Shown piece by piece: positions 13,447 through 46,508 of a stretch of DNA of 64,000 nt. Below the pieces are notes generated by a model. It saw nothing but the letters and a program-made list of their open reading frames with translations. It ran no database searches and was not told where the DNA came from. The stretch spans positions 66,121-130,120 of the forward strand of contig JAHDQN010000057.1 in the NCBI GenBank assembly GCA_018433775.1, in the 5' to 3' direction. The translations under genes were made by a program, and so were the position numbers. The stretch's first letter is position 1. Every line of letters begins with the position of its first letter. This stretch comes from Deltaproteobacteria bacterium (GTDB lineage: Bacteria > Desulfobacterota > Desulfomonilia > UBA1062).

Positions 13447-13590
13447 GATTCCTGTTCGTCTCCCTCAACCGAGGATCCGGTCAGATTCGATGGGCATCGT
13501 CTGTATGCAGAACAGACGTCTTGAAGAGCCCGCATATTCCCCACAGATGGTGTTCCTGAATGTGATGAACAGATATGAGATGAGCCTGCC

Positions 13591-14598: not shown

Positions 14599-14605
14599 GG
14601 ATGCA

Positions 14606-15193: not shown

Positions 15194-15200
15194 GCATACC

Positions 15201-16196
15201 TCAGTATCCTTTTGTGAAATCGACCCTGTTGATCAAAGGACTGCCTGTTGCAAAACGATTCAGATTCTCCACCGCATCAGGCAAATGCGGGAGCTCACCC
15301 CGTATCATCCCGCCGCGGTGCGGAGACATGACCACGTTGTCCAGGGTTTCGAACGGAAAGCGTGAGGGCCTGGATAAAGAGTGTCCCCGTTGCGGGTACT
15401 GGTACCAGACATCTATACCCGCACCGGCAATCCGGTTCTTCTTGAGGACACAGAACAGTGACTCCTCGTCAATGATGTCACCTCTCGAAACATTGATGAG
15501 ATAGGAGGTGCTCTTCATGAGCTCGAGCTGTTCCCGTCCGATCATTCCCCTGGTCGCGGGAGTCAGGGGGGCCGTTACGATCAGCACGTCACAACGCTTG
15601 AACAGGTGATTCAGCCCCTCAGGCCCCAGTATGGCCAGTTCCCCTTCCTTCCTGCCTTCGGAAGCAAGGGCGCGGATGGTTACATCAAATCCCTTGAGCA
15701 TTTTCTCGAGCTTTCGACCTACGGCGCCATACCCTATCAAACCGATATCTTTTCCGTATAATGCATCCGGTGGTGTAAAGTCTTCAGAGCCGGGTCTGCG
15801 CCAGTTACCCTGCTTCAAGGCACAGTGGTGTGACGGTATCTGCTTCATACAGGCAAGGAGCAGGGCCATCGCCAGTTCGGCTACGGATGCGGCATTGCTG
15901 TGAGAGTTGCACACCTGGAAGGAATATTTCTCAAGCAGGCCGAAGTCAATCTTGTCCAGTCCGGTCCATGGGATCTGCAGGAGCTTCACGCCGGTTGCCG
16001 CATCCATAACTTCCGGGGCGGGCACATCGCCCAGCAGTATGTCGATGCCCCTGGATGCTTCTTCCGCCAGGGTGGGAATCGAGTAGTCCTTCGGAATGAC
16101 GAACACCACATCCGGCATGACATGGGTGCGGAGATATTCCAGGTCGAGGTCCCAGAACTTCCGGGTCAGGAGGCACTTAATCTTCTTTTTTTTCAT
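15201..16196 (-). CDS. D-isomer-specific 2-hydroxyacid dehydrogenase family, NAD-binding (SerA/GhrB-like).
   Basis: 331 aa. Rossmann motif GLIGYGAVGRKL and a catalytic region NVSRGDIIDEESL...AGAGIDVW...SPHRGG typical of the D-2-HADH family. Confidence 0.8.
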   Translation of the reverse strand: MKKKKIKCLLTRKFWDLDLEYLRTHVMPDVVFVIPKDYSIPTLAEEASRGIDILLGDVPAPEVMDAATGVKLLQIPWTGLDKIDFGLLEKYSFQVCNSHSNAASVAELAMALLLACMKQIPSHHCALKQGNWRRPGSEDFTPPDALYGKDIGLIGYGAVGRKLEKMLKGFDVTIRALASEGRKEGELAILGPEGLNHLFKRCDVLIVTAPLTPATRGMIGREQLELMKSTSYLINVSRGDIIDEESLFCVLKKNRIAGAGIDVWYQYPQRGHSLSRPSRFPFETLDNVVMSPHRGGMIRGELPHLPDAVENLNRFATGSPLINRVDFTKGY

Positions 16197-17355
16197 GAGC
16201 TGATGACTCCATGAATTCCAGAATTCTCTTCATCCCCTCCTCGAACACATCGGTTTGATTCACGAAGGAGAGGCGGCAATAGTCCGGATAATTATTCCCG
16301 AACGCCAGCCCGGGCACTATCGCAACGTTTTTTTGATCGAGGAGTTCAACGGCGAAAGTGTCACAGTCCATCCGGGAAGCAGATATATTGATGAATGTGA
16401 AGTATCCACCCTCGTACTCCGTACCGCTCAGATAAGGTGAGCGGCTCAGCAGGCGATCGTAGATGATCTTTCGCTCGCGGAGCTTCCGGACATAGTTTCC
16501 GATATGATCCCGGTTTCCGTCGAGAGCGGCAAGGGCTGCCTGCTGGATGAAGGCAGCCGTATTGGTATTGATGTGCTCGTGTATGGTGAGCATGGCGCGT
16601 GTGACCGTGGCAGGGGCGTGGACGTAACCGATGCGCCACCCGGTCATGAAATGGGCCTTGCTGAATCCCCCGACCGTAATGACCCGGTTTTCAATGCCGG
16701 GAATCGACGCCGGGGCACGGTGCTTGGTATCACCTACCACCATTGATTCGTAGATCTCGTCCGATAGCAGGTATAATCGCGGATGTTGTCTCATCTCCTC
16801 GGCAATGAAGAGGATATCGTCGTCGGAAAGCATTCTGCCTGTGGGGTTGTGCGGCGTATTGATGAAAAGCAGCTTTGTCCTGTCCGTAAGGCAGCTCGAG
16901 AGTTTTTCCCGGTCCAGATCGAATACGCCCGGGGTCATGTCCACATCGCACACCTTCACCCCGGAACCGGTGATGTGCACGATCGGGGAATTGCTGACGT
17001 AGCAGGGCCGCAGGAGGGCGACCTCATCTCCTGGTTCGAGCAGGGCTGCGCACGCCAGGAAAAGGGCATTTTTCGCCCCCGGTGTGATGATGATCTGCTC
17101 TGCGCCTGCCTCTATCCCATGCGAAGCCTTCAGGTAGCGGGCAATGCATTCCCTTAAGGGTGGCAGCCCCTGTGGGTTGGAGTATTTCGTCAAGCCATCG
17201 CGCAGGGCTTTTACCCCGGCCTCCACGATGTGAGGGGGTGTCGGCACCTCTGCCTCTCCCAGGCCCAGGGAAATGATCTCTCTGCCCTGTCGTACATGTT
17301 CCCGGACCTTCTGACTGAATTCCAGCGTGACCGATGGTGTTATCTGTTTCATACC
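16177..17355 (-). CDS. Class I/II PLP-dependent aminotransferase (AspC family). Start taken at MKQITP; the track ORF 16177..17499 carries a spurious N-terminal extension.
   Basis: PLP-lysine context GGFSKAHFMTGWRIGY. NPQG, TPGAK and INTPHNPTG motifs. 14-nt gap to the upstream DegT gene stop. Confidence 0.8.
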   Translation of the reverse strand, partial: GMKQITPSVTLEFSQKVREHVRQGREIISLGLGEAEVPTPPHIVEAGVKALRDGLTKYSNPQGLPPLRECIARYLKASHGIEAGAEQIIITPGAKNALFLACAALLEPGDEVALLRPCYVSNSPIVHITGSGVKVCDVDMTPGVFDLDREKLSSCLTDRTKLLFINTPHNPTGRMLSDDDILFIAEEMRQHPRLYLLSDEIYESMVVGDTKHRAPASIPGIENRVITVGGFSKAHFMTGWRIGYVHAPATVTRAMLTIHEHINTNTAAFIQQAALAALDGNRDHIGNYVRKLRERKIIYDRLLSRSPYLSGTEYEGGYFTFINISASRMDCDTFAVELLDQKNVAIVPGLAFGNNYPDYCRLSFVNQTDVFEEGMKRILEFMESSAHEKKED

Positions 17356-17368
17356 TCTCACCTTTGTT

Positions 17369-18475
17369 TTACGAAACGAGAATGTCGATGGTCCGGTACA
17401 GGTCTTTGTCGGTGAGGCCGTAGTACAGAGGCAGGCACAGGATGCGCCTGGTGATGTCCTCGGAAACGGGCGCCGGCTGATACTCCACGATCTTGCCAAA
17501 CGTGTTCACCGATGGATAAAAGTACCTTCTGGGATGGATATCATGCCGCTTCAATTTCTCCTCAGCCTTGGACATCTCCGATTCACTCGTGAAGATGACC
17601 GGGAAATATGAACAGTTCGCCTCACCTGATCTGATACTCTGAAACCGTATCGATGCCACACCACTCAATGCATCGCGGTAGATCGCATACTTCCTCTTTC
17701 TGTCCGCGAGAACGGCATCGTAGTATTTCAGATTTGCGATCCCCAGCGCTGCGTGAACTTCGGTCATTTTTCCGTTAAAGCCATCTTCAACGATGTCCCT
17801 CGCCTCGTCATGGCCGAAGAAACGTATTCTCCTGAGCCGCTCATGCAGTTCGAAATCCCCGGTGATGCATCCCCCGCCTTCAGCCGTGTTCAGCAGCTTG
17901 GTGGCATGCAGACTCGTGGCCGTGATGTCACCGCATTCCAGCAGACTCCTGCCCCGATACATCGAGCCGACCGCATGTGCCCCGTCATAGATCACCTTCA
18001 GCCCGTATCCGGTTGCGATATCCTCTATCGACTGGACATCACAGGGGTTCCCGAACACATGAACCGGCATGATTGCGCAGGTCCTGTCGGTAATGAGCGG
18101 CTCTATATTGCAGGGGTCGAGGTTCAGTGTTTCGGGGTCGATGTCGCAAAAGATCGGTACGCACCCTTCCCATTTGATGGCGCTCACCGTGGCGATCCAG
18201 GTGAACGGGGTGGTGATGATCTCTCCCTTCAGCCCCAGAGCCTTGATCGCCATCTGAAGCGCAATGGTCCCGTTGGATACGGCTACGAAACTGGAAAGCC
18301 CCAGCTTCTTGCAAAGATCCCTCTCCAGCTGCTGAACCAGTGGGCCGTTATGGGTCAGTATGCCCCGTGACCATGCACCCCTGAGCAGTTCGACATACTC
18401 CTCCAGAGGGGCGAGAGAGGGCATGGTAACAGGGATCGAAGGGTGATTATTCATCTGTTCTGATTCTGAATTCAT
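17369..18475 (-). CDS. DegT/DnrJ/EryC1/StrS family sugar aminotransferase (PseC/EvaB-like). Start at MNSESEQ (18475) or MNNHPS (18454); the track ORF extends to 18841 through the upstream gene.
   Basis: Conserved core ...VAVSNGTIALQMAIKALGL...PFTWIATVSAI...VHVFGNP...DGAHAVGS...TSLHATKLLNTAEGG (Schiff-base Lys in HATK). Confidence 0.85.
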   Translation of the reverse strand: MNSESEQMNNHPSIPVTMPSLAPLEEYVELLRGAWSRGILTHNGPLVQQLERDLCKKLGLSSFVAVSNGTIALQMAIKALGLKGEIITTPFTWIATVSAIKWEGCVPIFCDIDPETLNLDPCNIEPLITDRTCAIMPVHVFGNPCDVQSIEDIATGYGLKVIYDGAHAVGSMYRGRSLLECGDITATSLHATKLLNTAEGGGCITGDFELHERLRRIRFFGHDEARDIVEDGFNGKMTEVHAALGIANLKYYDAVLADRKRKYAIYRDALSGVASIRFQSIRSGEANCSYFPVIFTSESEMSKAEEKLKRHDIHPRRYFYPSVNTFGKIVEYQPAPVSEDITRRILCLPLYYGLTDKDLYRTIDILVS

Positions 18476-19439
18476 GGATGAGCCTCGCTTGATTGATGTT
18501 CTGGGCATATTCGTCTCCGGCAATATCCGGATCATGTACTGCACGGGAGAAATACTCCAGTATCCCGGCGAAATGATCGTCAGCCTCGAGGGTGAGAACC
18601 TCTTTTCCTTCGGAGGTCTCAATGACCACCTCGGGTCTGAAACCCGGGGGCGCGGTGAAGATCCGGTTTGCCGAGAGCTTCCCCCTGCTTCCCCATAACT
18701 CGAGGGAGCACTGATAGTGATGGTCAAAGCCGAATGCGATCTCGGAAAAGAGCGGTCCGTTCTTCTGCCGCAGAAAGCCTCCACCCCAGATGTCCACGCG
18801 CCTCTGCTCATCGATGCAGAAGCTTGCGGCTTTGACCTCAAGGTCCGCGCCGAGGAATATCTGGGATATTTTTATGGGATACGCCCCTGCATCCAGCAAG
18901 GCGCCGCCTCCCAGGTCTTTCCGGTACCGGATGTTATCCGGATCGGGAAAGGGGGGGAACCCAAAGGATGAGCGCACACAGCGCAGCTCGCCGATCACCC
19001 CGTTATCCACCATTCGCTTGATTTCCGCCAGCTGGCTATGGAAACGGAACTGAAAGTTCTCGACCAGCGCAAGTCCCTTGTCCCTGGCTGCACGATTGAG
19101 CGATGTAACCTCGCCCACGCTGCAGGCAAGAGACTTTTCCACCAGTACGTGGAGCCCCTTGTTCAGTGCATGTTCGATCCACGGCGCGTGCAGGGCATTG
19201 GGCAGCGGGATGTACACCGCTTCCAGGCCTCCGGCATCCACCAGCGACTCGTAACTCCTGAAGGCCTGAGTGTCGAATTCCCTTGCCCACGCATCGGCCT
19301 TGTCTCCATCACGGCTGGCGATTCCGGCCAGCCGGTACAGGCGGCCCTGTTCGAGGATCGCAGGGATCATCAGTCTTCCGGCGACGCTTGCACAACCCAG
19401 CACACCTATATTTATTCTTTTTCCGGTCATTTCTCTCAA
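18447..19439 (-). CDS. Gfo/Idh/MocA family NAD(P)-dependent oxidoreductase (candidate sugar C-3 dehydrogenase/ketoreductase, WbpB/KijD10-like).
   Basis: 330 aa. N-terminal Rossmann RINIGVLGCASVAGR and EKSLA (the EKP-like motif) with a C-terminal alpha/beta domain. ATGA overlap with the upstream dehydratase stop. Confidence 0.8.
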   Translation of the reverse strand: MREMTGKRINIGVLGCASVAGRLMIPAILEQGRLYRLAGIASRDGDKADAWAREFDTQAFRSYESLVDAGGLEAVYIPLPNALHAPWIEHALNKGLHVLVEKSLACSVGEVTSLNRAARDKGLALVENFQFRFHSQLAEIKRMVDNGVIGELRCVRSSFGFPPFPDPDNIRYRKDLGGGALLDAGAYPIKISQIFLGADLEVKAASFCIDEQRRVDIWGGGFLRQKNGPLFSEIAFGFDHHYQCSLELWGSRGKLSANRIFTAPPGFRPEVVIETSEGKEVLTLEADDHFAGILEYFSRAVHDPDIAGDEYAQNINQARLIHEFRIRTDE

Positions 19440-20851
19440 GTAAACGATATCGCGGCAATAAGACTTCGTGCCTGGATATTCAGGTAGTTGTTGAACTTGA
19501 GGAAGGTAAACAACTGGCTCAGGGTCATCCAGATATAATGATCGGGCAGTTCGACCGGCACCTCTTCTCCACCAAGGACGATCATGTTCCGGTTTTGTTC
19601 CCGATAGAACCGCCCCCCTTCCTCCGATTGCATGGAATCGTAGACGATCCGGTCATCCTTCACATTGAGCACATATTCCAGGAAGGGCAGGGTCCCTTCT
19701 TTTGTCTGCCGATAGTTTCCGGTCAGACACTGAACCGTGGGTGCGAATTCGATGATGTCGTGATTTCCGCACTCCAGCTTGGCCTGCACGGCAAAATGCA
19801 GGATTCCGTTAATCTCTTTGCAGACAAAGGCACAAAGGCCTTCCTGGGCAGGCTCCACCATTGGCTGGGTCCAGGTGACCACTTCCCGGTTGCTTATTTC
19901 GACCTCCACGCCGATCACTTTAAAGAATCTACGGTCTTTGCGGTAGATCTCCGAGTGGTCGAAGTTCCAGTCTTCAAGCCTGTCCAGGGGGATCCTCCGT
20001 ATCTGCAGATCGTATGCGCTCTTCAGTTTCGCCAGAAAGGTGATGATGTTTTCGACCGTGTGAAGGCCCCCGGTGTCCGACAGGGCCGACTTGAGAAAGA
20101 GCCTGTGAATTTCCCGTGTACGGGGATTATGATTGAGGAAGTTGAAAAAATCTATTACCTCAGGCTCGAATATTCCAAAGGGTATGCCCGATATCACGGT
20201 GCGGGTATCCATGTTCACGAGGTTGTCGCTGCTCATCAGCTGCTTTATCTGCCCCAGGGTCAGCCAGATGAAGCCGTCGTGGACAGGGATCTCTTCATCG
20301 ATCCTGATAATGATGTTGCGGTTCCTCTTTTTCAGAAATCGTGCACCCTGCTCGGACTGGAGCTGATCGAGCAGGATCTGATCATTTCTGGCGTTCTGGA
20401 AATATTCCAGGTACTGGGGCTTGTGCCCTTTATGCACCTGCATGTAATTGCTTCTCGTAGCCTGCAGTGTCGGTGAGAGCTGGACGTAATTCATGTTGCC
20501 GGGTTCGATCTTGGCTTGAGTGAGAAAGTGAAGGATCCCGTCAAACTCCCTGACGATAAACCCGAGATAACCGATCTCGTGCTGATTGATAATGGGTTGA
20601 TCCCACTCGGATATGGTGCCCCAGTTCGTATTGACATGGATGCCGTCAATGGAGAAGAAATTCCCTGACTCATGCCCGATTCTCCCGTCAAGAAAGCGCC
20701 AGAGGTCCAGCTTGTGGAACGGGATTTTGCTGACCTTGATATCCACGTGGTCTTTCCGCTCAGACAGCCAGTTGGCGACCTGGCCGGTTTTTATGTATGC
20801 CCCTTCAGGGGCAAACGAGCTTCTCAGAAATTGAAAATTCAAATGAGCCAT
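19436..20851 (-). CDS. NDP-hexose 2,3-dehydratase (EvaA/TylX3/OleV family; two tandem Nudix-like Hexose_dehydrat domains). First gene of the operon.
   Basis: 471 aa with a clear internal duplication. Repeat 1: ...GHESGNFFSIDGIHVNTNWGTISEWDQPIINQHEIGYLGFIVREFDGILHFLTQAKIEPGN... Repeat 2: ...RKDRRFFKVIGVEVEISNREVVTWTQPMVEPAQEGLCAFVCKEINGILHFAVQAKLECGN... The size, two-domain architecture and RFFS(V/I)(E/D)G-type motif match the 2,3-dehydratases of deoxysugar pathways as I remember them; not database-checked. Confidence 0.65.
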   Translation of the reverse strand: MAHLNFQFLRSSFAPEGAYIKTGQVANWLSERKDHVDIKVSKIPFHKLDLWRFLDGRIGHESGNFFSIDGIHVNTNWGTISEWDQPIINQHEIGYLGFIVREFDGILHFLTQAKIEPGNMNYVQLSPTLQATRSNYMQVHKGHKPQYLEYFQNARNDQILLDQLQSEQGARFLKKRNRNIIIRIDEEIPVHDGFIWLTLGQIKQLMSSDNLVNMDTRTVISGIPFGIFEPEVIDFFNFLNHNPRTREIHRLFLKSALSDTGGLHTVENIITFLAKLKSAYDLQIRRIPLDRLEDWNFDHSEIYRKDRRFFKVIGVEVEISNREVVTWTQPMVEPAQEGLCAFVCKEINGILHFAVQAKLECGNHDIIEFAPTVQCLTGNYRQTKEGTLPFLEYVLNVKDDRIVYDSMQSEEGGRFYREQNRNMIVLGGEEVPVELPDHYIWMTLSQLFTFLKFNNYLNIQARSLIAAISFT

Positions 20852-21221
20852 GTGAATACACCGTTTCCCGGTCCCAGTGGCAAAAAGCCGTCTCCCGTTC
20901 TCAAACAGTATCTTCCCGGACCGTTGTTTCCTTGCATGAGGCTCCGCCCGTTATGGGTGAAAAGCCGCCCACTTTGAGAAAGCATCATAACCATGTTCTG
21001 CTGACCCAACATAAACCGGGATGAATTCAGCAATATATATGCCATGCACATACCGGTGGTTATGTTTATGATTTAATAGGGATAATCCCCGCTTGTTGCG
21101 AGAGAGAGTCAATATATTGACTTTTTGCATGGCCGAATTTGGCAACCGCCGGAGATTCACTGTCCAGGGAAAAATATCACCGGCTGCGCTGCTCATGATT
21201 GCGCAGGGAAAAGACGATAGG

Positions 21222-22892
21222 ATGCCTATGGTCAAGTTGCAGGAACAGGGAAGAGATGACAAGCGGCCCACGCTGGGGGTCGTGATGATCGTGAAGAACG
21301 AGGAAGAGAGGCTCCCACTGATTTTGTCCGACATCCAGGGGGCTGTCGACGAGATCGTGGTGGTGGACACGGGCTCACGAGACCGATCGGTCGAAATAGC
21401 CCGATCTTACGGCGCCAAGACCGGGTTTTCTGCCTGGTGCAACGACTTCTCAGCTGCAAGGAACGAATCAATACGCCTTGCCGGGTCAGACTACCTGCTC
21501 TGGCTGGATGCCGATGACCGAATCCGTGCGGAAGACCGGGAAAAGATCCGAGAGCTCAAAAAGAGCCTCAGACCGGCAAGAGACAGAGGATATCTGCTCA
21601 GGATCATGGTCCAGGGCAATGACGATTCAGACACTGTCGCCCTGCAGCCGAGGATCTTCCCGAACAGGGAAGGGATCGTGTTCGAGGGGAGGATACACGA
21701 GCAGATACTCCCCTCAATGGAGCGAAGCGGTGTTGCACTTGAAAAGGTGGACATCACGATAGAACATTCCGGCTATCACAGCCCCGAGGTCATCCGGGAA
21801 AAGGCGGAGAGGAATCTCAAGATCCTCATGGATGGGTCGGGTCGGAAAGAAGGCGATGTCATGCATCTTTTCCGCATTGCCATGAGCTATTATGCGCTTC
21901 GCGATTATGAGAAGTGTCTCGAATATCTCGCCCTGATAAGGAGACAGACCGGAACGGAAACCCGGGAGAAATATCATTACCTCGTGGCGGCAGAGTGCTA
22001 TGCCCGGATGAATGAACCCGGGAGTGCTCTGCGGGAACTGAGGAATGCGGTCCGGATCTTTCCGCGGAGCGGGGCCGTGCAGTATTTTCTGGGCTATCTG
22101 TGTCTCAGGATAAATTTACTCGATGAAGCGATCACCGCACTGGGGAATTCTGTCGGCCTGGGTATAGAGATCGAGAATTTTCCTCTTCCCACGGATATCC
22201 GGGAAGGTCTGCACTACCAATACGGTTGCGCCCTGGAAAAGGTGGGACGGGTCCGGGAAGCCGTATCTGCCTATCAGGAATCTCTGCATGCGAATCCGGG
22301 CTACACTCCTGCACTCAGGGCCCTGGGAATGGTCCTGTTGAACTCCGGTGAAGTGCAGAAGGCCATATCCTGTCTGGAGCGTGCGCAGCAGAGCGCGGGG
22401 AAATACGATCGACAGCTATGCCTTTCCCTGGCAAGGGCTTATATTTTCGTGGGCAAATTCTCCGACGCCCATGCCGTCTACCTCGGGTCGCTCCAGCACG
22501 ATCTCTGCGATATGGAAGTTCTCTCGGGAGCCGTTCAGACAAGCATAGAGACGAATGATATTCAGACGCTCCGGTCATCGATCAGAACATTGGCGTCCTT
22601 TTTCGGAAGAGAAGGGGGGGATTTTCCGGATGCGGCCGGTGACTATGCCGGCGCATGTGCGGAAATCGCGCGGGTGCTGCTTGACCGTGATGATCCGCTT
22701 ATTGCGAAAAGGCTTGCCGATGCCGCATTGAGGATGGATGAAACCTGTGCCCATGCGCACCTGGTCTGTGCGGATATCGCTCTTGTATCCGGCGATGTCG
22801 TAAAGGGCATCTCATGCATGGAGAAAGCTTTGTCTCATGGGGTCTCGCTTGATCAGATCACGGAAAGGATGGAGAGAATCGGCACGCCATGA
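21222..22892 (+). CDS. GT2 (GT-A) + TPR glycosyltransferase, paralog of 6939..8663; candidate flagellin glycosyltransferase. Start taken at MPMVKL; the track ORF starts at TTG 21093.
   Basis: PTLGVVMIVKNEEERLPLILSDIQGAVDEIVVVDTGSRDRSVEIARSYGAKTGFSAWCNDFSAARNESIRLAGSDYLLWLDADD is nearly colinear with the 6939..8663 product. C-terminal TPR repeats. The 21093-21221 extension contains a promoter-like palindrome. Confidence 0.8.
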   Translation: MPMVKLQEQGRDDKRPTLGVVMIVKNEEERLPLILSDIQGAVDEIVVVDTGSRDRSVEIARSYGAKTGFSAWCNDFSAARNESIRLAGSDYLLWLDADDRIRAEDREKIRELKKSLRPARDRGYLLRIMVQGNDDSDTVALQPRIFPNREGIVFEGRIHEQILPSMERSGVALEKVDITIEHSGYHSPEVIREKAERNLKILMDGSGRKEGDVMHLFRIAMSYYALRDYEKCLEYLALIRRQTGTETREKYHYLVAAECYARMNEPGSALRELRNAVRIFPRSGAVQYFLGYLCLRINLLDEAITALGNSVGLGIEIENFPLPTDIREGLHYQYGCALEKVGRVREAVSAYQESLHANPGYTPALRALGMVLLNSGEVQKAISCLERAQQSAGKYDRQLCLSLARAYIFVGKFSDAHAVYLGSLQHDLCDMEVLSGAVQTSIETNDIQTLRSSIRTLASFFGREGGDFPDAAGDYAGACAEIARVLLDRDDPLIAKRLADAALRMDETCAHAHLVCADIALVSGDVVKGISCMEKALSHGVSLDQITERMERIGTP

Positions 22893-22979
22893 TCGAGGAG
22901 CCGGCTCGGCCGTTATCGGCACGGCCATCTTTCCACAGGGAGCGCCAGAAATCCTCCCGTTTATCCGGCTGCACGGGTT

Positions 22980-23075
22980 GATGCGAGAGCGGCTCTGTCG
23001 ATCATCGATGATGCTATCCATAAAGCCGGCGCAGTGCTTGGCGACATCGGTGCATTGATGAACCGGTTCGACTAA
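22980..23075 (+). pseudogene. Flagellin gene relic: about 96 nt encoding ...DARAALSIIDDAIHKAGAVLGDIGALMNRFD* (the D1 C-terminal helix), with no N-terminal part and stopping 61 codons early.
   Basis: Roughly 80 percent nucleotide identity, by eye, to fliC 24125..24220 (DASEALSIVDDAIDAVGTVLGDIGAVVNRFD). The reading frame differs from the track ORF 22837..23058; the upstream in-frame sequence is unrelated to flagellin. Confidence 0.6.
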
Positions 23076-23108
23076 ACCTGTTTCAAAAAAGGAATTGTTA
23101 TTCAGTGT

Positions 23109-23270: not shown

Positions 23271-24404
23271 ATGGCACTTCGTATCAACACCAACGTAGCA
23301 GCACTCAACGCACACCGGCAGTTACTCGGAACAGAGCAGAGACTTGGTCAGAACATGGAGAAGCTCTCCAGCGGTTACCGCATCAATAAGGCTTCTGATG
23401 ATGCGGCCGGCCTGTCGGTTGCCAACCGGCTCCGCACCAACATCAGGTCATTGACCGTTGCATCGAGAAACGTCACCGAGGCGAAGGCCATGGTGGCCAT
23501 CGCAGAAGGCGCGGCCAACCAGGTGGAAGGTATTCTCGAGCGGATGAAAGAGCTCGCAACCCAGGCCGCATCGGACAACGCAGCCCAGGACCGCGACAAA
23601 ATCGACAGCGAGTTCCAGTCCCTCAGAGACGAGATCACCAGGATTGTGGGCGACACCGAGTACCAGGGCACCAAGCTCATCGACGGCACCTTCGGTAACG
23701 CCCTTGACGCAGACACCTCCACCGCTGACGGCGTGACCGGTCTCGATGCCAGCGGCATCAGGCTCGGCGGAGTGGAGGCAGGCATTTATACCATTGGCGC
23801 GACCGCGGGCGGGGCAATCACCATCACGGGTCCGGCTGATGTCGGAATCGAGCAGACCGTTAACACCACTTCAGACGGTGCACAGAGCCTCAGCTTCGAT
23901 GCACTCGGCATCACCCTCAACCTGGGCGAGGACTTTGATTACAGCGAAGCTGATCTGGACGGAACAGCCATTGTCGTCACCAGCGGGACCGGGACCTATC
24001 AGGTCGGCTCCAGCAACACGGCGGCAGAGGACGAGATCTCCGTATCTCTGGGCAACCTGCAGGTGAGCGAACTCGGTTCGGGTACGGGCAGCATGATATC
24101 CGACGTGTCTCTGGCCACGCGAGCCGATGCGAGCGAGGCCCTGTCGATTGTCGATGACGCCATCGATGCAGTCGGCACAGTGCTCGGCGACATCGGTGCA
24201 GTGGTGAACAGGTTCGACTACACTTATTCCAACCTGCAGATCACCATCGAGAATTTCTCGTCTTCCGAGTCGGTCATCCGGGATGTGGATATGGCGGCTG
24301 AGATGGTCAGCTTCACGAAGAACCAGATCCTGCTCCAGGCCGGTACTGCCATGCTGGCACAGGCCAACATGTCGTCCCAGGGCGTCCTGAGCCTGATGGG
24401 TTAG
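23271..24404 (+). CDS. fliC: Flagellin.
   Basis: 377 aa. Conserved N-terminus (MALRINTNVAALNAHRQL...LSSGYRINKASDDAAGLSVANRL) and C-terminus (...AMLAQANMSSQGVLSLMG). Ser/Thr/Gly-rich central variable region. AAGGAGG Shine-Dalgarno 8 nt upstream. Confidence 0.95.
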   Translation: MALRINTNVAALNAHRQLLGTEQRLGQNMEKLSSGYRINKASDDAAGLSVANRLRTNIRSLTVASRNVTEAKAMVAIAEGAANQVEGILERMKELATQAASDNAAQDRDKIDSEFQSLRDEITRIVGDTEYQGTKLIDGTFGNALDADTSTADGVTGLDASGIRLGGVEAGIYTIGATAGGAITITGPADVGIEQTVNTTSDGAQSLSFDALGITLNLGEDFDYSEADLDGTAIVVTSGTGTYQVGSSNTAAEDEISVSLGNLQVSELGSGTGSMISDVSLATRADASEALSIVDDAIDAVGTVLGDIGAVVNRFDYTYSNLQITIENFSSSESVIRDVDMAAEMVSFTKNQILLQAGTAMLAQANMSSQGVLSLMG

Positions 24405-30316: not shown

Positions 30317-30429
30317 GGGATTGAGCGGTATGAGGAGGGACCAGGCGGTATGTTTCCTTGAGACCCTCATTCGTCTCTTTACTCTTTCTGATCAGGAGGC
30401 GTGCTGTTCTCAAGGGCAGGAGGAAATGC

Positions 30430-31836
30430 ATGATGCTTCACGGGCGGAATAGACGGAGGGCAGTAATCCTGTGCGTTGCTTTTCTGCTCGCCCTCGTGGG
30501 TACGGGACACCCCGCTCGGGCACATATGACCCACACCGTGAGGGAGGGGGACTCGCTCGGCCGGATCGCCGCGCACTATCTCCCCTACACCGATTCATAC
30601 ACCAGTGAAGAGCTCATCAGCGACATCAGGGCGCTCAACGCCTTGAGCTCCAGCATGCTCTCGATAGGGCAGGACCTCACCATTCCCGTGGTCCGGAGCG
30701 AGCCTGTCAGGGCAACGAGCAGGCCGAAGGCCAAGGACTTTGCCGCCCGGGGCATCTATGTGAATGAACAGAATGCGGGAACCGGAAGGATCTTCGACCT
30801 GACGCGGAGACTGAGGAGCTCCGGGGAGAACACGGTCGTGGTCGACGTCAAGGAGGTAAAGGGAACGCTTGCCTACCCGAGCTCCATTCCCGGCGCCTTT
30901 GCCTCGGTCTCTTCCTGCCCGTACAGCATCGGGGACATTTCAAAGCTCATTGATCATCTCCACAAGATGGACATGCATGTGGTGGCGCGTGTCTGCGTTT
31001 TCCGGGACAAGCTCATGGCCTCGTCGATGGAAGGCTGGAGATACAGCGAGGAATGGGTCAATCCGGCCAACGAGGATGTTCAGCAGTATCATCTCGCCCT
31101 TATCCGGGAGCTCATAGGCCTGGGCGTGGACGAGATACAGCTCGACTACTTCCGGTATCCTGCCGACGGAAGGACGGACACCGGCATTGAGGGCAAAGAC
31201 CGGAGCGACGTTATCGCCGAATACCTCGCGCAGATACACGATCTCACCTCGGCGGGCAAGGTGCTGCTCTCCCTGGACATGTTCGGGATCGTGATCTGGC
31301 AGCGGAGCATGGATGTCAGCGTGCTGGGGCAGGATGTGCAGAAGATCGTGGATCACATCGACATCATCTCGCCCATGCTCTATCCTTCTCATTTCGGAAA
31401 GGACTTCGACGGCATACCCAACCCGGCTGACGAACCCTACTATTTCGTGAGAGAAGGGGTGCAGAGGCTCAAGAACATCGTGGGAGACAGGGCGGCCATC
31501 AGGCCCTGGCTGCAGTCGTTCCCCTTGAGAATCACCGCCGGTTTCGATCCTGAATACGTCAGGTGCCAGATCGATGCCGCACGGGATGCCGGCGCAGTCG
31601 GCTGGCTCCTCTGGAGCCCGGGAAACCGGTATGACGAGGCCTTTGCCGCACTCGAGGACATGCACGTCGCAAAGATGGCCGAGAAAGCGGCCCTTCAGGA
31701 AGAAGAGCAGGGCGGGAGCGTGCAGGGATCGGATGCGAACTGGCACTTCGAGAAGTGCCTTACCCCAGGATCTCCCGGACAGCTGCTCCTTCCTGTAGAC
31801 GGTCCGGCGGTGAGACAGATGGGAATACCGTTCTAG
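30430..31836 (+). CDS. Secreted LysM-domain protein with a GHL10-like (DUF4015-type) putative glycoside-hydrolase TIM-barrel domain. Start taken at MMLHGRN after an AGGAGG Shine-Dalgarno; the track ORF begins at 30358.
   Basis: Signal peptide, then LysM (HTVREGDSLGRIAAHY...LSIGQDLTIPV), then a TIM-barrel-like region (VVVDVKEVKGTLAYPS...VDEIQLDYFRYP). Confidence 0.55.
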   Translation: MMLHGRNRRRAVILCVAFLLALVGTGHPARAHMTHTVREGDSLGRIAAHYLPYTDSYTSEELISDIRALNALSSSMLSIGQDLTIPVVRSEPVRATSRPKAKDFAARGIYVNEQNAGTGRIFDLTRRLRSSGENTVVVDVKEVKGTLAYPSSIPGAFASVSSCPYSIGDISKLIDHLHKMDMHVVARVCVFRDKLMASSMEGWRYSEEWVNPANEDVQQYHLALIRELIGLGVDEIQLDYFRYPADGRTDTGIEGKDRSDVIAEYLAQIHDLTSAGKVLLSLDMFGIVIWQRSMDVSVLGQDVQKIVDHIDIISPMLYPSHFGKDFDGIPNPADEPYYFVREGVQRLKNIVGDRAAIRPWLQSFPLRITAGFDPEYVRCQIDAARDAGAVGWLLWSPGNRYDEAFAALEDMHVAKMAEKAALQEEEQGGSVQGSDANWHFEKCLTPGSPGQLLLPVDGPAVRQMGIPF

Positions 31837-32111
31837 GTAGACGTCCCTGTGAACCCCTTTGGCTTATGGGAAATAGCTGATCACACATTCACATCCTAAG
31901 CTTCCTAATATCCCAAAAGAATTATTGATCTCTGAGAGAACTATTCGCAGGAGAAAGCTTGAGGGCCGGTTCAAGCATGATGAAGGCGAAAGGATCATGA
32001 GGCTTGTTCGATCCGGCCATAAGAATCCTTGGAGGCAAGGAAGACACGTCAATTGCGGAACGGATGTGAAACGAAAACGGAAAAATTAACGCTTGTTTTA
32101 TTAAGGCGAAA

Positions 32112-32208
32112 TGGCGGAAGCGCACAGGAATCGAACCTGCCCAGGACGCTCGACGCGCCCCACACCGGATTTGAAGTCCGGGGGACCCACCAGAACCCGA
32201 CCGCTTCC
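32112..32208 (-). tRNA. selC: tRNA-Sec (selC), anticodon UCA, 97 nt.
   Basis: Minus-strand RNA GGAAGCGG-TCGGGTTCTGGTGGGTCCC-CCGGA-CTTCAAA-TCCGG-TGTGGGGCGCGTCGAGCGTCCTGGG-CAGG-TTCGATT-CCTG-TGCGCTTCC-G-CCA. It has the extended 8-position acceptor, a long variable arm, anticodon loop CUUCAAA (UCA) and a colinear architecture with E. coli selC (GGAAGATC...GGACTTCAAATCC...GGTTCGACTCC...). Anchored against track ORF 32029..32256. The 8th acceptor pair is G·G. Confidence 0.85.
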
Positions 32209-32342
32209 ACAGGTGGGGTATATAGCATGTTCGTTCTAAGAGAGCAAACACTCTGAGTGCAACTGACCGGGCGGCGGCCATCGCGATGGCGTGCATGGAT
32301 TCCATCTTGACAGGATTACGTGTTTAATGGTCTTTTTCCCCT

Positions 32343-32864
32343 ATGACAACAAGACTGGTCGTCTGCCTTGTCGTGTCTCTGATCATCCATGCCGTTGCGC
32401 TGGTTCAGCCCTGGAGCCTCGTTGTTGTCGCAGGCGCCGTCAGGCAGCCTTCCCTGAGCATTCCGGTCAGGCTGGTGGATGAGGTCGGGCCTGAAGATCT
32501 CCTTCGTAAGGTCGAGAAGGTTCCGGATGAGATAGAAGAGGTAAGCGAGGGCATCAGCTTTGAGACCGAAGGTGAGGTGAGCGCCGACTATCTCGAGCTG
32601 CTCAAGGCGAAGATATTCGATGCCTGGGAATATCCCGAGGATGCCATCGCCGGCGGTGCCGACGGGACTGTGAGGGTCCGCTTCGTTCTCGACGCCCTGG
32701 GCTCGGTGACAGAGATCGGCGTCCTGTCTGGCTCCGGTCACGCGAGCCTGGATTCCGCAGCCCTGGCTGCCGTGCGGAAGGCCGGGCCGTTCGGCCCGTT
32801 CACCGAAGACTTGGCCGGCGAGACGCTCAATATTACCGGCAGCTTCTGCTATGTGCTCGACTGA
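32343..32864 (+). CDS. TonB C-terminal-domain protein (energy transducer TonB family, short form).
   Basis: 173 aa. N-terminal TM segment; C-terminal TonB_C motif YPEDAIAGGADGTVRVRFVLDALGSVTEIGVLSGSGHASLDSAALAAVRKAGPFGPF. Confidence 0.7.
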   Translation: MTTRLVVCLVVSLIIHAVALVQPWSLVVVAGAVRQPSLSIPVRLVDEVGPEDLLRKVEKVPDEIEEVSEGISFETEGEVSADYLELLKAKIFDAWEYPEDAIAGGADGTVRVRFVLDALGSVTEIGVLSGSGHASLDSAALAAVRKAGPFGPFTEDLAGETLNITGSFCYVLD

Positions 32865-34696: not shown

Positions 34697-35697
34697 TCCC
34701 TGTATTCGTGTCCCATCTGGGGTGTCCGCACCGGTGCATCTTCTGCGACCAGACACAGTTTTCGGAGCCGGTGGCGCCCGAACGGATACCCGGTATCGTC
34801 TCCACGTTCATCGCCGGCTGCAGAGATCCCCACCTGCGGAAGCGGATCATTGCCTTTTACGGGGGGTCCTTCACCGGGATTACGCCCGGCCTGCTCGACC
34901 GTTATCTGGCAGAGGCCGGCCGTCTGGTCGAGGCAGGGATCGTCCACGGCATCAAGGCGTCGACCCGGCCCGATATGATCACTCCCGAGCTCCTCGCCAG
35001 GTGCAGAAGAACCGGATTCGTCGAGATGGAGATCGGGGTCCAGTCAATGGACGACCGCGTCCTCGAAGCGAGCAGGAGGGGGCACAGCGCGTCCGATGCG
35101 GTCAGCGCCGCCCGGATCGTCCGTGATTCGGGCCTGGAGCTGGGCATCCAGCTCATGCCGGGGCTTCCCGGAGAAGACAGGGAGAGCTTCCGTCGCACCA
35201 TCGACGAGACGGTGAGCCTGAGGCCCGATCATGTCCGGCTCTATCCCGCCGTGGTGGTCAAGGGCACCGAGATGGATCGTATGTACCAGGCCGGTGCATA
35301 TGTTCCCCTTGACCTCGATGAGGCCGTCAGGCGATGCCTGTACGGGTATGCCCGGTTCTCGCGACAGGGATGCACCGTGCTCAGGATGGGGCTGCCTCCT
35401 TCCCGGTCCTTGCAGGTCGCGGCAGGCCCGTACCACCCCGCGTTCGGCTTTCTCGTCAAGGCCCGGGGGTATCGTGTCATGACGGGTGTGCTCAAACAGC
35501 GTTTCGGCGGTGAGCTGGATCTGGAAGTGCATCCGGGCAGCGTGTCGGAACTCATCGGGTACCGGAAGGAAAACATTGATGAATTCGGGTTTATTTACAG
35601 TTTTGACGAGCGTTTGCCGAGGGATTATGTACAGGTGCGCGGTGCTGTAGAAAGAGGTTGCCTCCAACTTAAGGATATTTTAGAGTATATTTTATGA
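34654..35697 (+). CDS. Radical SAM protein (ELP3/HemN-like core). Start uncertain: ATG 34654 (43-nt overlap with rnc) or GTG about 34711.
   Basis: CxxxCxxC cluster CPHRCIFC near the N-terminus, followed by a GGSFTG (GGGTP-like) motif. The track ORF from 34519 has an Arg/Gly-rich junk N-terminus read through rnc. Confidence 0.7.
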   Translation: MQGGVEISGLSPVVIPVFVSHLGCPHRCIFCDQTQFSEPVAPERIPGIVSTFIAGCRDPHLRKRIIAFYGGSFTGITPGLLDRYLAEAGRLVEAGIVHGIKASTRPDMITPELLARCRRTGFVEMEIGVQSMDDRVLEASRRGHSASDAVSAARIVRDSGLELGIQLMPGLPGEDRESFRRTIDETVSLRPDHVRLYPAVVVKGTEMDRMYQAGAYVPLDLDEAVRRCLYGYARFSRQGCTVLRMGLPPSRSLQVAAGPYHPAFGFLVKARGYRVMTGVLKQRFGGELDLEVHPGSVSELIGYRKENIDEFGFIYSFDERLPRDYVQVRGAVERGCLQLKDILEYIL

Positions 35698-38129
35698 GTG
35701 CACATGTGGTCGATGTACGGTCCCTGCCGGTTCTTCCCGAGCTGGCCGACCATGTCATCAGGATGGCGCTGGAAGATGATATGTCCGTTGCCAGGGTCTC
35801 GGCCCTCATCGAGAAGGATCAGGCCCTGACGGCACGGATACTCTCCCTGGCCAACTCCAGCTACTACAAGCGCTCCCGGAGCATCTACACGGTGCGCGAC
35901 GCCGTGGTGGTCATCGGGTTCGACGCGGTGCGCACCGTGTCCCTGGGGGTCTCCGTGCTGGACATGTTTCCCACGGTCAAGGGCACGAGCCTCGACCTCA
36001 AGTCGTTCTGGCGGCACTCCATGGCGTGCGCGTTCTATGCCGAGGCCATGATGGGGGTGGTGAACAGTCGCAATGTTGCGAAGGCCTTTTGCGCAGGTCT
36101 GCTTCACGATATCGGCAAGCTGGTGCTCGATCGCACGAGACCCCGGGAATACGCCGCGGTGCTGGAAGAGGCCGCGAAGGGAACCATGTCTCTGTCCGAG
36201 GTGGAAAAGGAGATGCTCGGCACCACCCATGCCGACGTGGGGCGCGAGGTCATCGCCCACTGGAGGTTGCCCCGGCTGTACGAAGAGAGCGTCTGGTCCC
36301 ACCATGCCCCGGTCCAGATTCTGGACGAGGAGCAGTATCAGCTCTCGGGCATTCTCCACATCGCCAACATCCTGGCCCACATGACATCTGCGGGGGCGTC
36401 CGGGAACCGCTTTCCCCAGAAGCTGACGAACCCTCTCCTGAAGAGGTTCGGTCTGAGCGCGGATATCCTGGATTCACTGATGGAGAAGGTACCCGGGCAG
36501 ATAGACGCCATATGCGAGGAGATCGGCATCGGCAGGCCGGTCGAAGGGCTGTTCGGCATCGTGAACACCGCGAACACGAGGCTTACGGATATCTCTTTGG
36601 AGCTTAAGCGGCACGCCGACGAGGCCCGGGAGGCCAAACAGAACGCGGATGTCCTCATCGGGCTCCTGGGCGAGCTCAACGATTCGACCCGGATATCCGA
36701 CGCCCTCGAGAAGGCGTCCGGCTCGCTGCAGGACGCCGGTATTATCCGGAGCTTTCTGGGGGGCCTCAAGGCGGGCGGGTACTACCTGGTCTACGAAGCC
36801 ACCCCGGAGCGCAGCTCCCGCTTCATCCGGGTGAAGGACGAAGAGCTCAAGGCAATGATATTCTCCCGCCAGTCCCTGGTGGGCACGATGCTCCCCAACG
36901 GGGTGTTCGTGTATTACGAGCCGGCAGCCGGCGAGGCCGGAGAGGATCATTCGTTCATGTCCGCCGTGGTCGGAGCCATCTCGTCGTCGCTCAGGCGCAT
37001 TCATATGGAGAGCAGCATGGCCGAAGGAGAAGACAGTTTACGAAAAGCGCTGAAGGGCTCCGCGGATGACAAGCAGAAGGCAGAGGATGCCTTAAGCCTC
37101 AACCAGGAGCTCATGGATGCCTCGCCGTACGGCCTGTGCCTCCTGGACGAGAACAAACGGGTGAGGCTCGAGAATGAGAGTTCCCGCGAGATCCGCCGGG
37201 CCCTGGGCATTGCCGGAGACGATCTGCTTGCCGCCCTGCCGGGAGATTCCCGCGAGGAATGCCGGGAGCTTCACGCCGCCGTCGAGTCAGGGCGCGAAGC
37301 TGCCCTGATCTGGCACGACCGCACCCGTTCCTTCAGGGTCGAAACCAAACCGGTGAAGATCAACAACTGGCTGCTCATCGTGTTCTGTGATATCACGAGC
37401 GAGCTGGAGGAAGAGCGCCGGAAGGTCGCCTACGCCAGGATGACCACTGTGGGCAACCTGGCCGCCTCCATGGCGCACAACATGAAGAGCCCCCTGGGTG
37501 CGATCCACGGGTTCGGCAGTATCATCAAGGACGACCTGAGCCAGGGAAGGCTCCATGTGCTCCGCAACGGGCAGGATGACGAGGATTTCAAGGACATGAT
37601 CTCCAACATCATCACCGGCTCGGAGAACCTGCTCAAGATCGTGAATCAGCTGCTGAGCTTCACGAGAAAATGGGAGAGCCCCGAAGGGGAGATCGATATC
37701 GAGGGTTTCGTGGACGGGATCTTCCAGATCGTCTCGTCTCAGGCCAACTCCGCGGGGGTGAAGCTCGCCCGGGAGATCGAGGTAGACACCGCCCGCACCA
37801 GGGCGGAAGCGCTCGAACAGGTGCTCATCAACCTCCTGATCAATGCCGTGAAGGCATCGTCCCAGGGCGCTCGGGTTGTCCTGAAGGTGTCGCTCAAAGA
37901 CGGCGGGGTCGAGTTCGCCGTGACCGACTTCGGCATCGGCATGGACCAGGACCAGGTCGTGAAGGTTTTCGATCCGCTCTATACGGCATGGCCCGTAAAG
38001 ACAGGGATGGGGCTGGGGCTTTCCCTTGCAAAGGATATCGTCGATTCCATGGGCGGCCGCATCGACGTCACCTCCTCGCCGGGGAAGGGTTCGACATTTT
38101 CGGTGTGGATACCGGAAGGTAAGGGATGA
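35694..38129 (+). CDS. Sensor histidine kinase with an N-terminal HDOD domain.
   Basis: 811 aa. HDOD domain (LPELADHVIRMALEDDMSVARVSALIEKDQALTARILSLANSSYY...AGLLHDIGKLVL). C-terminal HisKA (ASMAHNMKSPLGAI) and HATPase_c (GMGLGLSLAKDIVDSMGGRIDVTSSPGKGSTFSVWIP). ATGA overlap with the radical-SAM stop. Confidence 0.8.
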   Translation: MSAHVVDVRSLPVLPELADHVIRMALEDDMSVARVSALIEKDQALTARILSLANSSYYKRSRSIYTVRDAVVVIGFDAVRTVSLGVSVLDMFPTVKGTSLDLKSFWRHSMACAFYAEAMMGVVNSRNVAKAFCAGLLHDIGKLVLDRTRPREYAAVLEEAAKGTMSLSEVEKEMLGTTHADVGREVIAHWRLPRLYEESVWSHHAPVQILDEEQYQLSGILHIANILAHMTSAGASGNRFPQKLTNPLLKRFGLSADILDSLMEKVPGQIDAICEEIGIGRPVEGLFGIVNTANTRLTDISLELKRHADEAREAKQNADVLIGLLGELNDSTRISDALEKASGSLQDAGIIRSFLGGLKAGGYYLVYEATPERSSRFIRVKDEELKAMIFSRQSLVGTMLPNGVFVYYEPAAGEAGEDHSFMSAVVGAISSSLRRIHMESSMAEGEDSLRKALKGSADDKQKAEDALSLNQELMDASPYGLCLLDENKRVRLENESSREIRRALGIAGDDLLAALPGDSREECRELHAAVESGREAALIWHDRTRSFRVETKPVKINNWLLIVFCDITSELEEERRKVAYARMTTVGNLAASMAHNMKSPLGAIHGFGSIIKDDLSQGRLHVLRNGQDDEDFKDMISNIITGSENLLKIVNQLLSFTRKWESPEGEIDIEGFVDGIFQIVSSQANSAGVKLAREIEVDTARTRAEALEQVLINLLINAVKASSQGARVVLKVSLKDGGVEFAVTDFGIGMDQDQVVKVFDPLYTAWPVKTGMGLGLSLAKDIVDSMGGRIDVTSSPGKGSTFSVWIPEGKG

Positions 38130-44875: not shown

Positions 44876-45144
44876 TGCAGCAGCACGCGGTGGAATTCGA
44901 CGAACTGAGCACCCGGTGCCCGATGCTGGGGCACCCGGTGCCGTTCTCCTACTGCAGGCAGTGCGGCGGTGCGATTCCCTGCCGGAAGATCGTCGACTGC
45001 TGGTCCGGGAGGATCGATATTCAGGGCTTTCTGTGCAGCAGCTTTTCAGAGGAAGAACTGTCCCGGATCGTCGCTCCCCCCAAGCCCAAGCTGCTCCAGA
45101 TCATCGAGCTGGCCCGGGCGGCCAGGGACAGGAACGGTCAGTAG
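44869..45144 (+). CDS. Small Cys-rich hypothetical protein (possible zinc-ribbon); start overlaps the trpB2 stop.
   Basis: 91 aa with [22 protein letters not shown]...C spacing. No recognised family. Confidence 0.25.
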
Positions 45145-46508
45145 AGATCCGCCAGCACGTTCAGGTGGCGGTAGACGTTTCTGGGCAGGATGCCCAGGGT
45201 GAGCAGGCTTGCCTGAAGGTTTGAGGTGTCCACCTTCTCCAGCTCCAGTCCGGGCAGGAGCCTGTTGGTCAGAACATCGGCCACATAGGTGAGGCTCACG
45301 ATCTCGCTGTTGTCACGGGCGACCTCCGGGGCATGGTGGAAGGATATGACATCCTTGAGGACACCCGGAAGATGCCATTTCTCCGCGAGCATGAGCCCTG
45401 CCTGACAGTGCTCAAAGCCTATGATGTCCTGCTCGACCTTGCTGGAATCCTCTTTGTGCTCGATGATCATCCGGTAGAAGAGGGGCTGCATCTTGTCGAT
45501 ATACTGATCGAGCACCACCTTTCCGATGTCGTGGAGCAGCCCGGCGGTGTAGGCTACATCGGGATTGATCTTCTTCTGCGCCGTTGCCAGGGCCTTGCAC
45601 AGCCGGGCCGTTGCCACCGCGTGGTGGAACATCCCGCCCCGGCAGAGGGAATACCCGCCGTCCGACGAGTGGTAGAGGTTTTCGATCTGGGCCGTGATCA
45701 CTATCTGGAGCAGCACCTTGCTGCCCAGAAAGACGATGGCCTGGTCGATCGACGCGATCTTGCGGGGCAGCCCGGTGTACGATGAATTGCACATCCTGAG
45801 CACCTTGGCGCTCAGGACCTGGTCTTTCTTTATCTCGGCGGCAATGGTGTTGATGTCTACATTGTCGTCGGAAAGCATCTGGGCGATGTTGAAGACGATC
45901 TGGGGAACCGGGAGAAGCCTTTCTATGGTCTTCTCGATGGTCTCCCTGTCCATGGGCTTTTTCTGGACGCCTTTCACGGGTCTCTCAAGCAGAACCGGTT
46001 CAATGCTGCACGCCCCGGTGTCGAGCCGGAAGGTCAGGCAGAAAGGGTTCACCCCGCTCGCCTCCAGGGTCTTGATGGCGATGCCGTGTTTTTTCAGGAG
46101 GGACAGCGTGATCTCGACGGTCTTGTAGGCGAAATTGATGCTCACGTCGCGGGCGGAGAAGGAATCGACCAGAGCACCGCCGGCAATGAACGCCTCCATG
46201 GTATCGATGCATGCCCCCTGCTCGACCATGGCATCGATGAAGGCGGGAATCCCGGTGCATGCATAATACGATGTATGGTAATCAGGAACGTCGCTCACGG
46301 GCTCGGGCAGAAGGATGTGGAGCATGCCTCCCAGCTTGCTCTTGTGATCGTATATGGCAAGGCCCACGCACGAGCTCAGAAAGGCCTTCAGCAGCCCGTG
46401 CCTGCCGATGACCATACCTCCGGTGGGAACAATCGTCGTCAAGGAAAATCCCCCTGCTCTTTGCATTGCCTTTCCGGCCTTTGCCTTAAAAGACCGGTTG
46501 CCTCTCAC
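45138..46508 (-). CDS. Fusion protein: N-terminal CheD-like chemoreceptor glutamine deamidase domain plus C-terminal HDOD domain.
   Basis: The N-terminal third, GGMVIGRHGLLKAFLSSCVGLAIYDHKSKLGGMLHILLPEP, matches the CheD core (LGSCV...GGM.H..LP). The C-terminal half, NIAQMLSDDNVDINTIAAEIKKDQVLSAKVLRMCNSSYTGLPRKIASIDQAIVFLG...AGLLHDIGKVVL, is HDOD. The first 15-30 codons of the track ORF may be an extension. Confidence 0.7.
   Translation of the reverse strand: MRGNRSFKAKAGKAMQRAGGFSLTTIVPTGGMVIGRHGLLKAFLSSCVGLAIYDHKSKLGGMLHILLPEPVSDVPDYHTSYYACTGIPAFIDAMVEQGACIDTMEAFIAGGALVDSFSARDVSINFAYKTVEITLSLLKKHGIAIKTLEASGVNPFCLTFRLDTGACSIEPVLLERPVKGVQKKPMDRETIEKTIERLLPVPQIVFNIAQMLSDDNVDINTIAAEIKKDQVLSAKVLRMCNSSYTGLPRKIASIDQAIVFLGSKVLLQIVITAQIENLYHSSDGGYSLCRGGMFHHAVATARLCKALATAQKKINPDVAYTAGLLHDIGKVVLDQYIDKMQPLFYRMIIEHKEDSSKVEQDIIGFEHCQAGLMLAEKWHLPGVLKDVISFHHAPEVARDNSEIVSLTYVADVLTNRLLPGLELEKVDTSNLQASLLTLGILPRNVYRHLNVLADLY

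Follow-up and report, generated by a model that had tools for sequence, protein, structure and literature searches.

Does the 97-nt stretch at positions 32112-32208 (minus strand) of this DNA encode a working selenocysteine tRNA, and how should one read the G that faces another G at the eighth layer of its acceptor stem? The earlier note had recognized a selC gene of E. coli-like bacterial layout here, and had offered two readings of the G·G opposition, a natural variant or a sequencing error. We address both questions by comparing the gene with tRNA-Sec loci from other bacteria and by examining its surroundings in the window, by which we mean the whole 64-kb stretch of DNA analyzed.

Identity and fold of the gene

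ARAGORN calls a tRNA-SeC with anticodon tca and boundaries at exactly 32112 and 32208, and Rfam model RF01852 scores 69.8 bits where the gathering score is 47 (E = 3e-12 for a search of the whole window), the whole model spanning 32116-32208 on the minus strand; the gene is accepted by the kind of tRNA predictor that the earlier note had proposed as a check. Read arm by arm, the RNA is GGAAGCGG UC GGGUUC UGGU GGGUCC C CCGGA CUUCAAA UCCGG UGU GGGGCGC GUCGA GCGUCCU GG GCAGG UUCGAUU CCUGU GCGCUUCC G CCA. It begins with GGAAG, has a 6-bp D-stem and 4-nt D-loop of the type recognized by SelA (GGGUUC/UGGU/GGGUCC), a 7-nt anticodon loop (CUUCAAA, with the anticodon at 32172-32174), a long extra arm with a 7-bp stem, and a T-arm (GGUUCGAUUCC), and it ends with the discriminator G73 (32115) followed by an encoded CCA. 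Every feature that the earlier note had listed can be seen in the sequence, and the resemblance to E. coli selC extends to the GGAAG start, the 8 + 5 layers, the D-stem and its loop, the CUUCAAA loop, the long extra arm, the GCAGG/CCUGU T-stem, G49·U65, C50:G64, G73, and the encoded CCA. The two genes differ at layer 7:66, which is G·G in the window but C:G in E. coli; at the top layer of the anticodon stem, which is C·U in the window but G·U in E. coli; and in that no genomic island is attached to the window selC.

Minimum free energy folding of selC alone does not return the cloverleaf (z = -1.05), which at -40.4 kcal/mol lies 2.4 kcal/mol above the minimum of -42.8; single-sequence folding is therefore uninformative for this gene, and we used covariation instead. 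A GTDB scan of one genome per species, using a degenerate pattern that put no constraint on the acceptor stem, gave at least 120 tRNA-Sec loci, a pattern-selected sample whose frequencies are not population estimates. Among the loci listed, 118 genes including the window gene were parsed layer by layer, and 38 distinct clade sequences were aligned and scored against the 8/5 cloverleaf (alignment A1).

All four arms are supported by covariation across these 38 relatives. In A1, 93.6% of cells are paired, compared with 79.9% in shuffles; both sides change at 17 pairs, none of 500 shuffles reaches any of the five measures, and pairing falls to 39-53% in controls in which the partner was slid by 1-3 columns. 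The D-stem is 99.6% paired with compensatory change at 5 of its 6 pairs, all 7 pairs of the extra-arm stem covary, and the 5-pair T-stem is 100% paired with 3 pairs covarying, the window subclade having C:G/A:U where most others have U:A/G:C. The CUUCAAA loop with its UCA anticodon is invariant in the 38 relatives, as are G73 and CCA across the 38 distinct aligned sequences (both among the loci listed), and ARAGORN makes the same tRNA-SeC call in each of the 32 clade relatives tested. The sixth, topmost layer of the anticodon stem is without a standard pair in all 38 distinct sequences; in the window it is C·U (nucleotides 27 and 45; A1 columns 27:46).

The nearest relatives of the window tRNA among the loci listed are L017, L090, and L118, from MAGs labeled Desulfomonilia or 'Syntrophaceae UBA1062', and all three have the same G·G. 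The tRNAs of L017 and L118 are identical to each other, and a single C/U change, through which the D-stem pair survives as U·G, separates them from the window tRNA; that of L090 has the same change and a second one, located in the linker that joins the extra arm to the T-stem. The identity, fold, and conservation of the gene are established.

The eighth acceptor layer

The opposed bases are the G at tRNA nucleotide 8 on the 5′ side (position 7 in E. coli tRNA-Sec numbering; 32201, minus strand), which is invariant in the clade, and the G at nucleotide 86 on the 3′ side (position 66; 32123, minus strand), assigned from the sequence and the parse of 118 genes. The next layers are G49·U65 and then C50:G64, and the acceptor/T helix as a whole has 8 + 5 layers, with 12 standard pairs and the one G·G mismatch.

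Among the loci listed, the commonest state of layer 8 is A-U (71 of 118 parsed genes), and G·G is found in 31 of the 118, the window gene included, with G49·U65 beside it in 31 of 31. The 30 other genes come from species-level genomes or MAGs of different projects, within the sample of at least 120 loci. Every G·G genome among the loci listed is of Thermodesulfobacteriota type, whether labeled Desulfomonilia, Syntrophaceae UBA1062, Desulfobacterales, or 'Deltaproteobacteria', or binned, in some cases, as 'Bacteriovoracaceae'; the flanks in these last bins are syntenic with those of other G·G loci. Layer 8 is unpaired in 30 of the 38 distinct clade sequences of A1, and layer 6 alternates between C-G and U-A while the G·G stays constant.

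These observations bear directly on the possibility that sequencing or assembly introduced the G·G by mistake into a selC of standard 8/5 type. A single wrong base would be enough to create the mismatch, and in most of the tRNA-Sec genes sampled this layer is a standard pair; but the same opposition recurs in 30 independent genomes or MAGs (L017, L090, and L118 among them), beside a neighboring pair that covaries between C-G and U-A. This recurrence refutes the error, to which we assign a probability close to nil; the G·G is really present, and of the two readings in the earlier note it is the natural variant that survives.

A second question is the register. G7 could instead pair with U65, leaving G66 bulged and the T-stem with 4 bp (an 8/4 fold), and because G7, G49, and U65 are invariant in the clade, covariation is silent on this point. 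In the relatives L010 and L057, however, where position 66 is C or U, that base pairs with G7, and we do not prefer the bulged register over an 8/5 fold with a symmetric mismatch.

Judged from this comparison, the G·G of the 8/5 helix is an inherited lineage trait, tolerated and usually kept. Layer 8 is G:C in L010, a close syntenic relative, and G·U in L057, a member of the clade from Desulfobacterales, so the mismatch is tolerated rather than required, and an adaptive story is correspondingly weakened. In three Acidobacteria among the loci listed the layer is C·A, C·U, and A·A.

Promoter and gene neighborhood

Upstream of the tRNA on the minus strand is an extended -10 element, TGcTATATA (32219-32227; TATATA at 32219-32224, TG at 32226-32227), whose TATATA stops 10 nt short of the tRNA 5′ end, and 17 nt farther upstream a -35-like TTGCTC (32242-32247), which in relatives is mostly TTGATC. 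In 26 of 35 clade loci TGnTA sits equally far from the tRNA, the clade -10 (TGnTAT...) ending 9-12 nt ahead of the tRNA, and a TTG... motif occupies the -35 zone in 30 of 35; promoter conservation is established, and the proposal in the earlier note that TATATA is a -10 box is plausible. A generic promoter scan found no selC promoter because its rule requires T at position 6 of the -10 hexamer.

Just upstream of the -35 element lies the palindrome CACTC-N-GAGTG (CACTCNGAGTG; 32249-32259), to which the earlier note had drawn attention. The palindrome is indeed there, although it is shared only with L090, and a rough estimate (4^-5 per position) predicts tens of palindromes with arms of 5 bp in 64 kb; it is probably incidental and no more than chance. 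On the downstream side, a consensus scan picked out a candidate terminator-like hairpin, TCCTTG-CCTC-CAAGGA followed by TTCTTATGG (32026-32041, minus strand), which lies 71 nt beyond the tRNA 3′ end and is a consensus match without comparative support.

The genes on either side of selC are conserved. Upstream, and divergent from selC, is a gene for a small protein with a TonB C-terminal domain (32343-32864, plus strand; Pfam), syntenic in L090, L118, L016, L070, L099, L109, L097, and L101; beyond it Pfam identifies SurE, RNase III, a radical SAM protein, an HDOD histidine kinase, a PAS kinase, Era, and Der, and the SurE side is conserved in L016, L070, L099, L109, L097, and L101. Downstream, and convergent with selC, is a gene for a putative glycosyl hydrolase with LysM and DUF4015 domains (30358-31836, plus strand; Pfam), syntenic in L090, L017, L118, and L091; the Pfam order toward selC on this side is a flagellin-glycosylation cluster, flagellin, FlaG, FliD, a BKACE enzyme, LysM-DUF4015, and selC. 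The flanks of selC are about 91% identical in nucleotides to those of L090 on the 5′ side and about 87% on the 3′ side, and 71-79% identical across segments to those of L118 and L017. Synteny is established, and the surroundings of selC are a conserved housekeeping neighborhood.

Several other features of the window are recorded here for their own sake. Look-ups of the exact proteins returned no record for the TonB-like protein or the HDOD kinase. Two HDOD proteins are encoded less than 10 kb apart, one fused to a histidine kinase (35694-38129) and the other to CheD (45138-46508). The flagellin of the window is encoded residue for residue on a 21.9-kb Logan contig (L123) from SRA run SRR13787005, which carries the same glycosylation genes and fliD neighbors and adds no sel genes; on the strength of this protein match and these neighbors, the same or a nearly identical organism is present in that sample. 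Adjoining flagellin, FlaG, and FliD is a large sugar-modification cluster (6939-22892) that looks like a flagellin glycosylation island: it encodes a 1598-aa glycosyltransferase that combines WbsX, two GT2 domains, and TPR, along with two GT2-TPR proteins, an NDP-hexose 2,3-dehydratase, DegT-type and class I/II aminotransferases, a GNAT protein, and an ATP-grasp protein. A 129-nt direct repeat of 78% identity has its first copy (22958-23086) in an AT-rich gap that precedes the flagellin gene on the upstream side and its second (24104-24232) within the flagellin 3′ coding region; it may be the remnant of a second flagellin gene.

Selenocysteine machinery

As the earlier note had stated, the 64-kb window contains no sel genes: neither Pfam scans of about 50 ORFs nor tblastn with E. 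coli SelA, SelB, and SelD found selA, selB, or selD. The same tblastn finds selA-selB beside selC in most alpha- and beta-proteobacterial loci (L003-L119), and hence the test works. At the Thermodesulfobacteriota-type loci among those listed, selA-selB is beside selC in none, and selC is alone with its own promoter. The window selC stands alone as does E. coli selC, whereas the sampled alpha- and beta-proteobacteria have selA-selB-selC clusters.

No selenoprotein gene was recognized in the 64-kb window, and a blind scan of the window for in-frame TGA returned 162 candidates, which is uninformative in GC-rich DNA. One such TGA, at 50432 upstream of TldD, was considered as a selenocysteine codon and rejected, the sequence before it being a separate small gene that ends in TGA. 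This small gene (50432-50840, minus strand), situated between PtsI and TldD, is a Cys-rich ORF (…CQGCQATGVCHG…) with a hydrophobic tail; it shares its reading frame with the TldD ORF, the TGA lying between the two.

Delta-proteobacterial anaerobes are rich in selenoproteins. In Desulfomonile tiedjei, of the class Desulfomonilia, selD itself has a Sec codon, and the class uses Sec (PMC5389517). We infer Sec use in the source genome of the window from the conservation of its tRNA: it is plausible that this genome makes selenoproteins, and the organism is likely to be a selenoprotein user.

Might the gene nevertheless be a selC pseudogene in decay, the genome around it having lost the Sec trait? 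Such decay would account for two non-standard layers in one tRNA, the G·G of the acceptor and the C·U at the top of the anticodon stem, and for the absence of sel genes from the window. Both odd layers, however, are clade-wide (30 of 38 distinct sequences for the acceptor layer, 38 of 38 for the anticodon stem); the single C-to-U difference from the nearest relatives preserves a D-stem pair as U·G; the promoter is intact and conserved; and the Rfam score is 23 bits over threshold. We regard a pseudogene as very unlikely, and selC is probably working as a gene; taking all of this together, 32112-32208 is very probably a genuine, functional, and independently transcribed selC of a Thermodesulfobacteriota bacterium.

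The AT-rich 3′ spacer

Between the LysM-DUF4015 gene and selC lies an AT-rich spacer (31837-32111; GC 0.43) that has no coding or RNA signal, and which raises the question of whether selC has served as a site of integration. The earlier note was right about composition, since the flank at 31860-32110 has a GC content of 0.434 compared with 0.577 for the window, placing it in the lowest 1% or so of 250-nt windows; its suggestion of an integration scar does not hold up as well. The scar would be that of a lost element inserted at the tRNA gene, as at E. coli selC, and besides the low GC content two observations are in its favor: i) the spacer cannot be aligned with the equal-sized spacer of L090 (L090 1120-1360) despite flanks about 91% and 87% identical; and ii) in L017 and L118 the corresponding interval is only about 60-80 bp long. 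Against it, i) Pfam scans of the neighboring ORFs reveal no integrase or other mobile-element gene beside selC, the only mobility-related match in the window being a weak TraF_2 (54361-55443) 22 kb away; ii) the 3′ end of the tRNA is not repeated anywhere in the 64-kb window, even when 3 mismatches are allowed; iii) the same genes lie on both sides of selC in many relatives; and iv) about 10 other intergenic pockets in the window are equally AT-rich, and the spacer has no Rfam match at E<=1, no similarity to any compared locus or to the rest of the window, and no remnants of mobile elements, repeats, or RNA families. A scar accordingly finds little favor with us and seems very improbable; with no integrase, repeat, RNA family, or similarity in evidence, the spacer is, as far as its sequence can tell, fast-evolving non-coding DNA.

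An AT-rich stretch (3626-3900; GC 0.40-0.47) also follows the tRNA-Pro(GGG) gene of the window (3483-3559), and a 131-aa ORF located there (3673-4068) has no Pfam match.

Comparison with known tRNA-Sec types

Acceptor/T branches with 12 bp have been described before: 7/5-plus-bulge types with Secmarker (PMC5330540), types from Cloacimonetes and Epsilonproteobacteria, and an 8/4 type with A51a in Actinobacteria and Chloroflexi (PMC5389517). The window tRNA resembles these 12-bp types, which occur in Sec-using genomes, in having only 12 standard acceptor/T pairs and one unpaired element. The known deviations from 8/5, however, all lose a residue or gain a bulge (PMC5330540, PMC5389517); unlike the 12-bp (7/5) types, the window tRNA keeps 8 nt per side and a 5-bp T-stem, has no bulge, and carries a symmetric 1x1 G·G. 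None of the tRNA-Sec papers and supplements searched describes a symmetric G·G type or contains this acceptor sequence.

The selC* tRNA-Cys and allo-tRNAs share with the window gene a tRNA-Sec-like shape, an occurrence in delta-proteobacterial anaerobes and, in some, a UCA anticodon (PMC5389517). A selC* tRNA-Cys carries U73 as discriminator and an 8/4 branch in which A51a is bulged, and selB*/cysS* follow downstream (PMC5389517); this identity is ruled out for the window gene by G73, by a 5-bp T-stem without bulge, and by the lack of a SelB-like gene in the window. Allo-tRNAs have 8/4 or 9/3 branches of 12 bp (PMC5389517), and are ruled out by the T-stem of 5 pairs, 100% paired and 3 of them covarying.

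Proposed mechanism and the EF-Tu antideterminant

The gene would be transcribed from its own extended -10 promoter of sigma-70 type, RNase P would have only a few nucleotides of leader to remove, and the CCA end is encoded. The RNA would fold into the bacterial 8/5 tRNA-Sec cloverleaf with a 6-bp D-stem, 4-nt loop, 7-bp extra arm, and G73; the G·G would be stacked between seven Watson-Crick pairs and G49·U65, in a helix of 13 layers of which 12 are standard pairs. We infer charging, use by SelA and SelB, and any role of the G·G along the following lines: SerRS would serylate the tRNA, SelA would convert the product to Sec-tRNA, and SelB would deliver this to a UGA marked by a SECIS element. 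SelA and SelB need a 13-layer acceptor/T helix (PMC7609411), and with 8 + 5 residues on each strand the 13 layers should be preserved.

The antideterminants by which E. coli tRNA-Sec avoids EF-Tu are C7:G66, G49:U65, and C50:G64 (PMC11231383, PMC9976931, PMC6267555). The window tRNA keeps G49·U65 and C50:G64 exactly, and replaces C7:G66, the first of these three pairs, with G·G. A purine-purine opposition at a layer contacted by EF-Tu should not improve EF-Tu binding, and the likeliest reading is that the G·G is neutral or mildly helpful for EF-Tu rejection.

A rival reading is that a tRNA with 12 standard pairs acts as a 7/5 species, carried by EF-Tu and inserting Ser (or Sec, independently of SelB) as a UGA suppressor, in the manner of allo-tRNAs or of the engineered tRNA-UTu. 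Nature does provide tRNA-Sec and tRNA-Sec-like molecules whose acceptor branches have 12 bp (PMC5389517, PMC5330540); but eight residues, not seven, lie between the T-stem and G73, so that the stack should still be one of 13 layers, the E. coli-type antideterminants G49·U65 and C50:G64 are kept, a purine-purine mismatch at the third site should make EF-Tu binding weaker still, and both the D-arm and the extra arm match the SelA/SerRS type. We consider a suppressor of this kind extremely unlikely, and return to a SelB-delivered tRNA in which the G·G is neutral or mildly helpful.

A more adaptive interpretation is conceivable, if rather unlikely: that G7·G66/G49·U65 defines an undescribed tRNA-Sec subclass, of 13 layers and 12 pairs with a symmetric mismatch, found in Desulfomonilia and Desulfobacterales-type bacteria, in which the mismatch is selected. 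Were this so, the G·G would be a stronger EF-Tu antideterminant, or a contact for a co-evolved SelB or SelA, and the C·A, C·U, and A·A that arose independently in the Acidobacteria would reflect a general rule of selection against a layer 8 that resembles a good EF-Tu site.

Significance

We wish to be plain that the gene is an ordinary one, belonging to a well-known kind and carrying a mismatch typical of its lineage, and that finding it opens no new question. It gives annotators a correct selC call, and as engineers of recombinant selenoproteins tune 7:66, 49:65, and 50:64, a natural mismatch variant is a small usable data point. For the organism, selC is the mark of a likely selenoprotein user; what goes beyond routine is only the inheritance of the G·G across a broad lineage of anaerobes.
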